Below are positions 27,410 to 34,272 of a stretch of DNA of 64,000 nucleotides, piece by piece. Each line of letters opens with the position of its first letter. Positions within the stretch are counted from its first letter, which is position 1. This DNA comes from a virus: the IMG/VR virus record IMGVR_UViG_3300019477_000133, positions 6,076 through 70,075 of that record, one strand, 5' to 3'. The position numbers and the translations under genes are program-made. The notes under the pieces were generated by a model, which was not told where the DNA came from, did no database searches, and saw nothing but the letters and a program-made list of their open reading frames with translations.

Positions 27410-27482
27410 TGCGCTCATAGCTCAGTTGGTAGAGCACCACACTTTTAATGTGGGAGTCTTGGGTTCGAGCCCCAATGGGCGT
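27410..27482 (+). tRNA. tRNA-Lys(TTT)
   Basis: acceptor gcgctca/tgggcgt (two G.U pairs), D gctc-agttggta-gagc, anticodon stem ccaca/tgtgg with loop ctTTTaa, T-arm ttggg-ttcgagc-cccaa. Confidence 0.8.
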
Positions 27483-27496
27483 ACAACTGAAAAAAA

Positions 27497-27649
27497 TAAT
27501 AGGTAGCCGTACTACCGAATTTACGCTTGTGGACTATCCTCCTATGGATGACTGATTGTAGCAATACAATGTACTAAAAAGTAATGATAGGTTGAAGCAA
27601 GAAGTGAAAAGTACCCAAATCATATATTTGCGTAGATTTTCATATACGG
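27497..27649 (+). ncRNA. orphan copy of the ~155-nt structured RNA found immediately 3' of tnpB (omegaRNA-like scaffold); no adjacent tnpB
   Basis: about 95% identical to 33871-34029 apart from an internal hairpin that differs with compensatory changes (attgtagcaatacaat versus attgagtagtaaactactcaat). Confidence 0.55.
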
Positions 27650-27853
27650 TCCTGAGTTCGAGTCCCAGTGGGCAACTCATACATTTACAAAAAGTAATAC
27701 CCATGCAAATGGTTTCTTGGCTAAGAATGATGCTAATTGTAATTTTAAACAAAACTAATTCAGTAATTGATAGAATTTAGTCGACATAAATTCTTGATAG
27801 CTACGTTGGTAACGTTACAACCAAATTATATCCTATTACATATAGGAGAATCA

Positions 27854-31217: not shown

Positions 31218-31291
31218 GGACTTGTAGCTCAGTTGGTCAGAGCAGCAGTCTCATAAACTGAAGGTCCCTGGTTCAAGCCCAGGCTGGTCCA
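31218..31291 (+). tRNA. tRNA with a CAT anticodon (third copy; Ile2-lysidine- or Met-type)
   Basis: D gctc-agttggtca-gagc, anticodon loop ctCATaa, T-arm cctgg-ttcaagc-ccagg; one mismatch each in the acceptor and anticodon stems. Confidence 0.6.
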
Positions 31292-31309
31292 CTTAAAAAA
31301 ATCAGTAAT

Positions 31310-31594: not shown

Positions 31595-32422
31595 ATGAAG
31601 AAAATTGTTACGTTTATTGCTACTGCAATCTTTGCTGTAACAGCATTAACAAGCTGTTCATTTACAAACCCATCATACGATGAAGAAGTAGCTTTAAAGA
31701 TGAAGCCATGGTTTGTTGGTAGTACTGGTGTAGACCCTACCCCTGTTAATGACTTAACATGTATTGCATGGACAACATCAGCTGTGAGTTTCTATATTCT
31801 TCCTCAAAAGGTGGAGTTCAAATTCGATGACTTGCTTTCAAACGACAACACACCTTTGGATGTAAGCATGTATATGGTCTTGCAGGTTCAGAAAGGTCAT
31901 ACTCCTGAATTGTTACAAAACTATGGTGAAGACTGGTATAAGACATTCATTGAACCATATTTCAAGAATAAGGTACGTGAATACGTTTCTACATGTTCTC
32001 CATTTGATTTGATGAGTAATCGTGAAGTACTTATTCAACTTGACACTGAAATTGCTAAGTCAATGAGAATTTATATTCAGCAACTTTCAAAGACAAGAGG
32101 TAACTTCCCTGTTACTATTCAGCAGGTTACTACAGATAGGGTAATGCCTAACAAGGAACAACTTGATGAAATGAACAAGACAGCTGCTGCTATTCAAGCA
32201 AAGCAGACACAGGAGAAGAAAGCTGAAATGGAGTTAGCAAGAGCCAAAGCTGAAAAGAATAAGGCTATTGCAGATAAGGCTTATATGAACGAATTGGCAC
32301 TTTCTCCGCAGCAGTTTATTCAACTTCGTGTATGGGACGTTATCGCAAGTAAGCAGGGTGCTAATATTGATGTACTTGTTGGTTCTGGAGAAACTCCCAT
32401 GTGGAATATTAAACAGAAATGA
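31595..32422 (+). CDS. lipoprotein with a C-terminal coiled-coil (possibly SPFH/band-7-like)
   Basis: MKKIVTFIATAIFAVTALTSCSF lipobox. Confidence 0.5.
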   Translation: MKKIVTFIATAIFAVTALTSCSFTNPSYDEEVALKMKPWFVGSTGVDPTPVNDLTCIAWTTSAVSFYILPQKVEFKFDDLLSNDNTPLDVSMYMVLQVQKGHTPELLQNYGEDWYKTFIEPYFKNKVREYVSTCSPFDLMSNREVLIQLDTEIAKSMRIYIQQLSKTRGNFPVTIQQVTTDRVMPNKEQLDEMNKTAAAIQAKQTQEKKAEMELARAKAEKNKAIADKAYMNELALSPQQFIQLRVWDVIASKQGANIDVLVGSGETPMWNIKQK

Positions 32423-32439
32423 TAATTAAATAATTAATA

Positions 32440-32512
32440 GCTGAATGAGCACGATTGGTTGTGCAACTGATTTGTAATCAGTAGGCTGTGGGTTCGAGTC
32501 CCACATTCAGCT
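32440..32512 (+). tRNA. tRNA-Thr(TGT)
   Basis: acceptor gctgaat/attcagc, D gcac/gtgc, anticodon stem actga/tcagt with loop ttTGTaa, T-arm gtggg-ttcgagt-cccac. Confidence 0.8.
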
Positions 32513-32517
32513 CATAT

Positions 32518-32590
32518 TGAGTAGTAGCTCAGGTGGTAGAGCGATGGTTTGAAGGTCCATGCGTCGGTGGTTCGAATCCACCCTATTCAA
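32518..32590 (+). tRNA. tRNA-Phe(GAA)
   Basis: acceptor tgagtag/ctattca, anticodon stem atggt/tccat with loop ttGAAgg, T-arm ggtgg-ttcgaat-ccacc. Confidence 0.8.
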
Positions 32591-32615
32591 CTAAACATAT
32601 GAAAATATGATATTT

Positions 32616-32688
32616 AGCCCCATCGACAAGCGGTTTAAGTCGCCACTCTTTCACGGTGGAGTCACGAGTTCGAATCTCGTTGGGGTTA
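32616..32688 (+). tRNA. tRNA-Glu(TTC), copy A
   Basis: acceptor agcccca/tggggtt, anticodon stem ccact/ggtgg with loop ctTTCac, T-arm acgag-ttcgaat-ctcgt. Confidence 0.7.
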
Positions 32689-32716
32689 CTAACAATTCTA
32701 AAAAAAAATAATAAAA

Positions 32717-33859
32717 ATGTTAAGAGGGATTAAGATAAGATTATATCCAAACAATACACAAGAGCAGGTACTCAATAAGGTGCTTGGGTGTTACCGTTTT
32801 GTTTATAACCAAATGCTTGCTCGAAAACAGAATGCTTATAAAACAGATAAAACAAACTTATCTGTTACCGATTTATCAAAATGGTTTCATGGAACATTGT
32901 TAAAGGATGAACAATATGCTTGGCTGAAAGAACAGAACACGAAGGTGATGAAACAAGCAATCAGACAAATGGATGGTGCTTACCAAAACTTCTTCAAACA
33001 ACATAATGGTTTTCCAAAATTTAAAACAAAGAAGGATAAACAATCGGCATTATTCCCATATGAAGCCATTTCCAAAAAGAATACATTTGAAACCAAACAT
33101 ATCAGTTTGACAACCTCATTAAAGAATATTAAGTTCCGTTGTTCAGATTTGTATTTCAGAAGATTACAAAAGTATAATAAGAATATAAGAAGTGCTACCT
33201 TATCGAAGACCAAGAGTGGTAATTTCTTCTTATCTATCCTTGTTGAATTGGATGATACTGAATTAAAGAAATTTGAACATACAAACAAGCAAGTTGGTAT
33301 TGACCTTGGAGTCAAAGATTTTGTAATCACGTCTGATGGTGAGGTATTTGATAACAAACATTTTTTCAAAGAGAAAGAGAAAGAAGTAAGGATGCTTCAA
33401 AGACAATTGTCAAGAAAAGTTAAAGGTTCTAACAATTGGAATAAGCAACGTGTTAGAATTGCAAAAGCATTTGAAAGACTTACCAACCAAAAGGAAGCCT
33501 ATATACATAGTGTTGTGAATGAGTTATTAACTTATTATGACACTGTATTTATGGAAGACTTGAATGTGAAAGGAATGCTAAAAAATCATCATCTTGCCAA
33601 AGCTATACAAGAGGTTAGTTTCTATAAGTTCAAGGAAATATTGTTTAGCAAGTCACTTGTTAACGATAAAAGTGTTGTGTTTATTGAAAGATTCTATCCA
33701 TCAAGCAAGACTTGCTCACAATGCGGTTATAAGAAACGAGACTTGAAGTTAAGTGATAGATTTTGGATTTGCCCTGAATGTGGGACAAAACATGACAGAT
33801 ATGTTAATGCTGCCATAAACATATTGTTGGAAGGTCAACGAATACTGGCAGCGGTGTAA
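32717..33859 (+). CDS. tnpB: TnpB (OMEGA RNA-guided nuclease, IS200/IS605 OrfB family), catalytic motifs intact
   Basis: N-terminus IKIRLYPNNTQEQ; RuvC-I VGIDLGVKD; RuvC-II VFMEDLNVKGM; zinc finger CSQCG...CPECG; RuvC-III HDRYVNAAINIL. Confidence 0.85.
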   Translation: MLRGIKIRLYPNNTQEQVLNKVLGCYRFVYNQMLARKQNAYKTDKTNLSVTDLSKWFHGTLLKDEQYAWLKEQNTKVMKQAIRQMDGAYQNFFKQHNGFPKFKTKKDKQSALFPYEAISKKNTFETKHISLTTSLKNIKFRCSDLYFRRLQKYNKNIRSATLSKTKSGNFFLSILVELDDTELKKFEHTNKQVGIDLGVKDFVITSDGEVFDNKHFFKEKEKEVRMLQRQLSRKVKGSNNWNKQRVRIAKAFERLTNQKEAYIHSVVNELLTYYDTVFMEDLNVKGMLKNHHLAKAIQEVSFYKFKEILFSKSLVNDKSVVFIERFYPSSKTCSQCGYKKRDLKLSDRFWICPECGTKHDRYVNAAINILLEGQRILAAV

Positions 33860-33870
33860 TAAAAGAAATA

Positions 33871-34029
33871 ATTAGGTAGCCGTACTACCGAATTTACGCT
33901 TGTGGACTATCCTCCTATGGATGACTGATTGAGTAGTAAACTACTCAATGTACTAAAAAGTAGTGATAGGTTGAAGCAAGAAGTGAAAAGTACCTAAATC
34001 ATAGATTTGCGTAGATTTTCATATACGGT
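33871..34029 (+). ncRNA. candidate omegaRNA (right-end RNA) scaffold of TnpB; begins 11 nt after the tnpB stop codon
   Basis: conserved with 27497-27649 including a covarying hairpin; the position matches where IS605 omegaRNAs are encoded. Confidence 0.55.
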
Positions 34030-34065
34030 GTGACGGTTCGATTCCTTTCGTTCGCTCATTTTCAT

Positions 34066-34137
34066 AGCGCCATCGACAAGTGGTTAAGTCGCTAGCCTTT
34101 CACGCTGGAGTCACGGGTTCGAATCCCGTTGGCGTTA
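34066..34137 (+). tRNA. tRNA-Glu(TTC), copy B (diverged from copy A)
   Basis: acceptor agcgcca/tggcgtt, anticodon stem ctagc/gctgg with loop ctTTCac, T-arm acggg-ttcgaat-cccgt. Confidence 0.7.
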
Positions 34138-34272
34138 CTAATTTGAATGTTGTTCCAATAAGCAAAAAATATATATTCAACAAAATATTATGGATACAAG
34201 TTTTATCACTATTATTATTTGTATTATTGTTGGAATTTTATCAGCAAATTATCTTAAAAATAGTTTTAAAGA

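Follow-up and report, generated by a model that had tools for sequence, protein, structure and literature searches.

The 64-kb window analysed here (the whole stretch of 64,000 nucleotides (nt), 31% GC, from the IMG/VR virus record IMGVR_UViG_3300019477_000133; all coordinates are window positions) contains 16 tRNA genes, all called on the plus strand by ARAGORN, and among them a TnpB/omegaRNA element. The best overall explanation, to which we assign a probability of about 0.72, is that this is a tnpA-less element of the IS607 type residing in the tRNA array of a huge phage, with flanks of recombinant origin and a guide of the homing type. Two diverged tRNA-Glu(TTC) genes, referred to below as GluA and GluB, bracket tnpB and the omegaRNA, as the original prediction had stated and as ARAGORN, Rfam, and Pfam confirm. 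The region is composed of the following features:

32440-32591, plus strand: tRNA-Thr(TGT) and tRNA-Phe(GAA), called by ARAGORN; the conserved upstream part of the array.
32616-32688 (ARAGORN 32616-32689), plus strand: GluA, tRNA-Glu(TTC) copy A; an additional paralog, situated at the element's left junction.
32686-32716, plus strand: putative short left end, TTACTAACAATTCT...AATAAAA, directly after TGGGG (32681-32685).
32717-33859, plus strand: tnpB, encoding 380 amino acids (aa); the lone open reading frame between GluA and GluB.
33874-34028, plus strand: predicted omegaRNA scaffold (right end of the element), a 155-nt block ending ...CATATACGG.
34027-34057, plus strand: 3' fragment of tRNA-Gly(TCC), beginning at about nt 43 and running to the end of the gene, by alignment with the intact Gly of the related loci L006, L014, L004, and L007.
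34066-34137 (ARAGORN 34066-34138), plus strand: GluB, tRNA-Glu(TTC) copy B; the array's ancestral Glu.

The recombinant origin is most apparent from the two junctions (boundaries are marked by a slash). The right junction, ...CATATACGG/TGTGACGGTTCGATTCC (34028/34029), falls within a GGT shared with intact Gly, which at this point reads CCAAGCTGGGTGTGACGG in L014, L004, and L007 and CCAAGCTAGGTGTGACGG in L006. The segment 34027-34057 corresponds to the last 30 nt of tRNA-Gly(TCC) with a single G-to-T change, and the alignment shows the right end of the element fused to the variable-loop/T-arm boundary of tRNA-Gly. A decayed T-arm remnant had been predicted between the element and GluB; it is present at 34035-34045 (GGTTCGATTCC), as a Gly fragment that doubles as the predicted guide, not as a relic of Glu. 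On the left, GluA ends ...CTCGTTGGGG/TTACTAACAATTCTAAAAAAAAATAATAAAA-ATG, leaving a gap of 27-28 nt between the end of the tRNA gene and the start codon of tnpB, and the TGGGG abutted by the left end lies in the 3' acceptor strand of GluA. The sequence following GGGG agrees with the canonical left-end start at 7 of 8 nt (TTACTAAC vs TTATTAAC) and resembles the short left end of L024, the locus with the closest TnpB in IMG/VR (TGGG/TTAGCGCAGTTATTTAAAAAAATAATAAATATAAAA-ATG, beginning TGGG/TTAGCGCAGTTATTTAAAAAAATAATAAA...); the L024 flank was found neither in the window nor in the other loci. In L012, a Glu-like gene ends TTTGGG/TTATTAA-TAAAGTTATTATTGATTTC, i.e., the canonical left-end start with an internal deletion. 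From homology to these other copies, we infer a left boundary at 32685/32686, such that the TTA of the left end would supply the last 3 nt of GluA.

A simple insertion would not leave such flanks: the left one is the 3' end of a tRNA-Glu and the right one is tRNA-Gly from nt 43 onward, and in empty arrays Gly lies upstream of Glu. Because the flanks derive from two different sites, the locus is recombinant rather than the product of a single insertion or of a target duplication. The earlier contention that the Glu pair is not a target-site duplication is therefore borne out, both by these flanks and by the divergence of the two copies, which carry compensatory changes.

Close relatives provide a series of alleles of the same locus, in which the Thr-Phe pair is always found 3' of a gene for an SPFH-domain protein. 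Their comparison shows Thr-Phe-Tyr-Gly(TCC)-Glu as the ancestral array, judging from the element-free relatives, in which Tyr and Gly occupy the interval between Phe and Glu. Six states can be distinguished:

State a (L006, L008, L011): the clean Thr-Phe-Tyr-Gly(TCC)-Glu array.
State b (L014, L007, L009): Thr-Phe, about 60 nt of left-end-like sequence, and an omegaRNA without tnpB, whose end ...ATACGG/T is joined to the first 3 nt (GGT) of an intact tRNA-Tyr; Gly and Glu come next.
State c (L004): a solo omegaRNA as in state b, with Tyr truncated by a 25-nt deletion.
State d (L005, L010, L067, L069): a solo omegaRNA joined to ...GGT/GTGACGGTTCGATTCC; the array has lost Tyr and the 5' part of Gly.
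State e (the window and L068, ODUG01000029.1): Thr-Phe-GluA-tnpB-omegaRNA-Gly fragment (as in state d)-GluB.
State f (L012): as state e, with another tnpB allele (74% aa identity) and a Glu-like gene with anticodon TTT and weak stems.

An assembly chimera was considered and ruled out by the occurrence of the same architecture in the independent assembly ODUG01000029.1 (L068). The series also bears on how the element had been thought to arrive. Insertion into an existing Glu-Glu locus is not supported, as element-free relatives hold Tyr and Gly between Phe and Glu. Of the original proposal of insertion at a tRNA-Glu with later duplication, or else recombination, the recombination survives and GluA is indeed tied to the element; the disrupted gene is, however, tRNA-Gly(TCC) and not Glu. 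The SPFH-domain gene itself, at 31595-32422 just upstream of the array, has homologs of 97-99% identity on viral contigs in IMG/VR that reach 312 kb in length, and the nearest GenBank homologs of the window TnpB, at 54% aa identity, are found in Prevotella Lak megaphages. The source is therefore taken to be a huge phage.

Both Glu genes fold into a cloverleaf with a TTC anticodon and score over the curated threshold according to ARAGORN and Rfam (RF00005, tRNA: 55.5 bits for GluA and 61.8 bits for GluB, against a gathering score of 29). They are identical at 64 of 74 positions, differing by nine substitutions and one indel. Three compensatory double changes, in the acceptor, anticodon, and T stems, indicate that the tRNA fold has been kept in both, and the two genes look like working tRNAs rather than a fresh duplication. 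GluB starts 37 nt past the end of the conserved omegaRNA block (...ACGG at 34028). Whether or not they carry the element, all close relatives have its ortholog at this position and share the sequence beyond it, which shows GluB to be the original Glu of the array. GluA was absent from all 10 close relatives without tnpB at the site, each of which has a single Glu, the GluB ortholog; relatives that lack tnpB and yet keep both genes, an outcome that would have spoken against a link between the element and the Glu pair, were not observed. L063 was not assessable for GluA, as its contig stops inside the element.

GluA has thus been seen only alongside the element: in the window, in L068, and in degenerate form in L012. 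Between the window and L068 it is identical at 74 of 74 positions, as is Thr (74/74), with GluB at 71/73 and the flanking genes and tnpB at about 95%. The perfect identity of GluA relative to its neighbour genes suggests that it has been maintained as a working tRNA in this sub-lineage. The L012 counterpart retains a Glu-like body with anticodon TTT and weakened stems; at L012 9025-9098 (equal to L043 2865-2938) ARAGORN calls it as Lys, and it represents a pseudogene in decay or else a tRNA with a switched anticodon. Exact IMG/VR searches for GluA and for the junction between GluA and the left end returned 0 matches. The source of the 25-nt spacer between Phe and GluA was likewise not found, with blastn-short matches only in the window, L068, and L012; these three also share a distinct Phe allele.

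The exclusive association of GluA with the element, together with the left end's provision of its last 3 nt, would also be expected if GluA were cargo in the left end, moved along as in integrative elements that restore a tRNA gene. We regard this as quite improbable. The homology of full-length copies begins after GGG, i.e., downstream of the body of GluA; the sequence of GluA lies inside the allelic range of the lineage's own single Glu gene; and the relatives L005 and L014, with their solo omegaRNAs, have left-end sequence straight after Phe and no Glu. Moreover, among the 39 loci retrieved through TnpB similarity, 36 lack a tRNA next to the element.

Under the recombinant explanation, element copies or alleles residing at different tRNA sites would have recombined, or a tRNA cassette would have been replaced, and in the process Glu was duplicated and Tyr and the 5' part of Gly were removed. 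Three routes can be envisaged. First, element copies at a Glu-end site and at the Gly site may have undergone unequal recombination. Second, TnpA-mediated recombination may have used the Glu end as a pseudo left end. Third, a diverged relative may have supplied a segment comprising the distinct Phe allele, GluA, and the element, in which case the right crossover would lie inside the element. Whichever route was taken, Tyr and the 5' part of Gly would have had to be lost separately. A mosaic history of this kind fits the shared Phe allele, the swap of the tnpB allele between the window and L012, and the alternation of Met(CAT) and Ile(TAT) cassettes elsewhere in the array. With regard to the latter, the window at 31218-31292, compared with L007 6496-6570 and L004 259-333, has at one array position either an anticodon-CAT tRNA or an unrelated tRNA-Ile(TAT) with different stems; judging from the stems, this alternation among close relatives is cassette replacement and not point mutation.

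The original prediction assigned the element to IS200/IS605, an assignment that the relatives do not sustain: from its clade, junctions, and flank, it looks to be of the IS607 type. One indication comes from L062, whose TnpB is 83% identical to that of the window and is preceded by a 206-aa gene ending 6 nt before tnpB. This gene encodes a MerR-type helix-turn-helix and a Resolvase domain (Pfam) and scores 200 bits against the NCBIfam IS607 transposase equivalog, for which the cutoff is 110. Remnants of the 3' end of tnpA, encoding the C-terminus, also precede tnpB in L033, L034, and L042. Full-length copies without tnpA, observed at six independent sites, begin about 100 nt upstream of the ATG with T(T)ATT(T)TAAC(T/A)GTT, preceded by GGG or AG. 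The motif [A/T]GGG precedes full left ends, the window left flank reads TGGGG, and right ends read ...ACGG/T. A search for the empty site that would confirm the left-end boundary of the L035/L037 copy gave 0 matches. The IS607-type reading rests on the serine recombinase of L062, the GG-containing junctions, and the G-rich flank, which resembles a transposon-adjacent motif (TAM). No transposase adjoins the window tnpB; the only partner seen in the clade is the serine recombinase, with the qualification that a Y1 TnpA was not systematically searched for in all 39 related loci.

The competing account, in which an IS200/IS605 element entered or landed next to a tRNA-Glu that was then duplicated or repaired, with the T-arm remnant as a decayed Glu, draws on the two flanking Glu genes, on the single Glu of relatives without tnpB, and on the protein score, which alone places the window TnpB closest to the IS200/IS605-TnpB model. 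It is nevertheless very improbable. The remnant aligns base for base with tRNA-Gly(TCC) rather than Glu, the clade's partner transposase is an IS607 serine recombinase, and the GG(T) junctions and G-rich 5' flank are unlike the TAMs of IS605 elements, which are AT-rich (bioRxiv 10.1101/2023.11.20.567912).

The right end of the element was defined by aligning 33 copies of the TnpB clade. Past the tnpB stop codon, sequence is conserved for about 155 nt, ending ...TTTTCATATACGG and followed nearly always by T, beyond which the flanks are unrelated. The block is conserved in 46 distinct copies, with homology stopping at ACGG/T, and right ends read ACGG (or ACGA)/T in 43 of 47 copy/flank combinations. 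A consensus fold from 35 sequences has 26 pairs, 15 of them with compensatory changes. By conservation and covariation, the block 3' of tnpB is the omegaRNA scaffold; Rfam (E<=1) contains no family for it and returned only tRNAs and chance matches. The tnpB-linked omegaRNA of the window keeps all 26 consensus pairs. The window also contains a further copy:

27501-27679 (omegaRNA 27501-27649), plus strand: second omegaRNA, without tnpB, directly after tRNA-Lys(TTT) at 27411-27484.

This second omegaRNA keeps 25 of the 26 consensus pairs and ends ACGG/T, after which comes a 30-nt tRNA 3' remnant (TCCTGAGTTCGAGTCCCAGTGGGCAACTCA). Relatives have a solo omegaRNA at the same Lys site with three different right flanks. 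Solo copies overall retain 25-26 of the 26 pairs and look like non-autonomous derivatives consisting of a left end and a right end. Two observations were made beside other copies of the element. In L044 (4272-4330), the right end is followed by about 55 nt that close with a T-arm-like hairpin (CTCAG TTCAATT CTGAG) and an acceptor-like tail, located 7 nt before a tRNA-Ser; this may be a further tRNA-truncating junction. In L033 (2383-2882), a regular 66-nt periodic repeat array of at least seven units, with CRISPR-like spacing, lies directly upstream of tnpB.

The omegaRNA of characterised IS607 and IS605 elements is produced from the right end, its transcript extending into the flank. If the same applied here, the flank from 34029 (TGTGACGGTTCGATTCC...) would be the guide, and this flank is variable-loop/T-arm sequence of Gly. 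For the omegaRNA of L068, whose TnpB has an intact catalytic Asp, the predicted guide is TGTGACGGTTCGATTC. Intact Gly alleles read CTGGG/TGTGACGGTTCGATTCCG or CTAGG/T...; those of L014, L004, and L007 carry CTGGG, so that TGGG is followed by a 17/17 match to the guide, and those of L006, L008, and L011 carry CTAGG. The element's own locus has TACGG in front of the guide sequence. L004, with the target allele, and L012, with an intact TnpB and this guide, come from the same metagenome (3300045988).

A guide/target match next to TGGG fits RNA-guided homing. A guide-loaded TnpB would cut the intact tRNA-Gly alleles of co-infecting sibling phages, recognized by TGGG and the 17-nt match, and repair off the element-bearing genome would copy the element in, amounting to homing or marker exclusion. 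The best-supported function would thus be the usual selfish one, i.e., cutting of empty alleles and copy-in, here between co-infecting phages. Two other kinds of target were rejected. Cross-targeting of other tRNAs found no second guide site at <=3 mismatches in the window. As for the host, the exact 19-mer guide plus GG gave 11 matches in 185,579 species genomes, none of them in Bacteroidota; therefore, the guide does not appear to be aimed at the host.

Two further observations concern the target genes. Intact tRNA-Gly occurs in two forms (L006/L008/L011 vs L014/L004) that differ by a compensatory pair change in the anticodon stem, which turns CTGGG 5' of the guide match into CTAGG; the change may be a TAM-escape polymorphism. 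Compared with L014 (9195-9245), the tRNA-Tyr of L004 (1820-1860) has lost exactly 25 nt, beginning 3 nt into the would-be guide-matching region and bounded by AG microhomology; this deletion could be a repair scar.

The window TnpB is recognizable as a member of the guided TnpB family. Pfam finds HTH_OrfB_IS605, OrfB_IS605, and Cas12f1-like_TNB domains (PF12323, PF01385, and PF07282, all over cutoffs), the NCBIfam guided_TnpB model scores 309 bits against a cutoff of 100, and the match to ISDra2 TnpB structures in the PDB has E=1.6e-50. Of the RuvC residues, D196 and E279 are intact; the third catalytic Asp is replaced by Y362 (codon TAT, 33800-33802). The motif H-[DEN]-R-D-x-N-A-A/S is found in all 33 relatives, and the ortholog in L068 has HDRDVNAA where the window has HDRYVNAA. 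With D362Y, the window protein lacks an intact RuvC D-E-D triad. Neither a tnpA nor a second tnpB was found in the 64-kb window by tblastn and inspection of neighbour genes. Given D362Y and the missing TnpA, the window copy probably has neither nuclease activity nor autonomous mobility. It would rely on paralogs acting in trans, or else be heading to the tnpB-less, solo-omegaRNA state seen in relatives. Elsewhere in the family, the tnpB homolog of Prevotella phage Lak-A1 (L002 3300-3420) contains an in-frame TAG, which the window tnpB does not. Lak phages reportedly recode stop codons, and the in-frame TAG is consistent with this.

A nuclease-dead TnpB could instead have been domesticated, as in TldR proteins, which are nuclease-dead, TnpB-derived RNA-guided repressors (bioRxiv 10.1101/2023.11.30.569447); the D362Y protein would then have been kept for RNA-guided binding of tRNA-Gly-like sequences or of the array. 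The replacement of the third RuvC Asp in an otherwise intact reading frame and the fully paired omegaRNA are what such a scenario predicts, and the likeness extends to a phage-encoded, TnpB-like protein that has lost a RuvC residue and retained its guide RNA. In contrast to TldR, however, the loss here is a single private substitution absent in the ortholog, and no conserved regulatory target was found; the guide has neither another match in the window nor an exact one in Bacteroidota, at the limits given above. As the closest ortholog, L068 (about 95% identical in nt), has Asp, the change is recent and private, as in early decay. Domestication is consequently highly improbable.

Several points weigh against the explanation that we prefer. 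By NCBIfam scores, the window TnpB is nearer to IS200/IS605-TnpB (349 bits, cutoff 425) than to IS607-TnpB (168 bits), with both values under the cutoffs. An error in assembly or sequencing could account for D362Y. Because the left-end start (TTATTAAC) is similar to the native Glu trailer (TTACTAAT), the left crossover could lie up to 7 nt further right. Searches of IMG/VR recovered no simple-insertion intermediates, in which the 5' part of Gly would meet the left end or the right end would meet the Glu trailer: a search for the right end followed by TTACTAWTTT gave three matches, all by chance and with no omegaRNA upstream, and one for the 5' part of Gly followed by TTA gave 0, so that the recombination history is a proposed one. 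The TAM preference, the expression of the omegaRNA, and the cleavage are predictions. Finally, intact Gly alleles persist in the same sample, and any drive is therefore not sweeping.

Whether the tRNA setting is more than a matter of target supply can be considered from the wider family. Association with tRNA genes as a general property of the family was ruled out, as no tRNA lies within 3 kb in the majority of the 39 TnpB loci. In the window, TGGG is 3.6-fold denser in tRNA genes than in the remainder of the sequence, so that target availability may explain the association; in combination with the tolerance of a redundant tRNA array to insertion, it is enough to do so. Alternatively, the tRNA context may serve RNA processing, with RNase P and RNase Z freeing omegaRNAs from the array transcript and the whole forming a natural tRNA-guide array for TnpB paralogs in trans. 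This idea, which is compatible with the IS607-type homing explanation, would account for the position of the two window omegaRNAs, each immediately flanked by tRNA genes and sharing the orientation of all 16 tRNAs, for the retention of nearly all consensus pairs by solo omegaRNAs, and for the presence of a solo omegaRNA at the Lys site in most close relatives covering that stretch. It is unlikely all the same: most family copies are not near tRNAs, the relatives are only about 5% diverged, such that retention may reflect recency, and the TGGG enrichment could by itself explain the association.

Combining these elements, the tRNA array can be pictured as both a guide-RNA platform and a battleground. 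OmegaRNAs, with tnpB or as solo copies served in trans, would lie between tRNAs and be released by tRNA processing; their T-arm guides would direct cutting of the tRNA genes of sibling phages, and the CTAGG Gly alleles would be TAM-escape alleles. We offer this picture as a tentative possibility, on the doubtful side. If true, it would constitute an RNA-guided counterpart of the marker exclusion exerted by T4 SegB.

Irrespective of this picture, a single phage lineage provides a natural allele series, comprising the empty array, the solo omegaRNA at Tyr, the truncated Tyr, the truncated Gly, and the full tnpB with an extra Glu. The series shows the entry, remodelling, and decay of TnpB/omegaRNA elements in phage tRNA clusters and helps to explain differences in tRNA content (loss of Tyr and Gly; duplication of Glu) among near-identical huge phages. 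As the guide (Gly T-arm) and real candidate targets (intact Gly with TGGG or TAGG) occur in the same metagenome, inter-phage RNA-guided homing is testable. In other respects this is a known element in an unusual place and a fairly ordinary case, with no new kind of system or mechanism.

Among known systems, the closest parallel is CboIStron, an IS607 element of Clostridium botulinum that has TGGG as its TAM, a strict GG core, and UCGG at the end of its scaffold, and in which the base at -3 separates self from target (bioRxiv 10.1101/2023.11.20.567912). Both combine a TnpB with a structured right-end omegaRNA that takes its guide from the adjacent flank. The clade of the window element likewise has a serine-recombinase TnpA as a partner, GG in both junctions, and a G-rich left flank (TGGG/AGGG), and tnpA-less and ORF-less derivatives exist. 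Here, too, the sequence adjacent to the right end (ACGG) differs from the flank motif at -3, as TCGG differs from TGGG in CboIStron. Unlike CboIStron, the present element resides in a huge phage and targets tRNA genes, its window copy lacks TnpA, carries D362Y, and lies between flanks that do not match (Glu to the left and Gly to the right), and its TnpB is nearer to IS605-type TnpBs by NCBIfam scores. No group I intron was noticed, although no search was aimed at one. The TnpB genes of Lak megaphages (GenBank MK250015-MK250029), the nearest GenBank phage homologs, also reside in huge phage genomes, there in multiple copies, and their omegaRNA region can be aligned with that of the window. The Lak copies examined are, in contrast, not next to tRNAs, and their right ends read ACTG or ACGT instead of ACGG.

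With respect to function, the nearest comparison is T4 SegB, a free-standing homing endonuclease encoded in the T4 tRNA gene cluster (Brok-Volchanskaya et al., 2008, as cited in PMC13565253). As far as that citing account goes, both cases have a nuclease gene in a phage tRNA cluster and a target in a tRNA gene of related phages, and in both the tRNA region of the carrier would be expected to be inherited preferentially in co-infection. SegB, by the same account, is a protein-guided GIY-YIG enzyme whose cleavage and marker exclusion have been demonstrated, whereas the specificity proposed here would reside in an RNA guide and the cleavage is only inferred. The IS607-type TnpB/omegaRNA element is a known one, and its setting in a tRNA array is uncommon and instructive.

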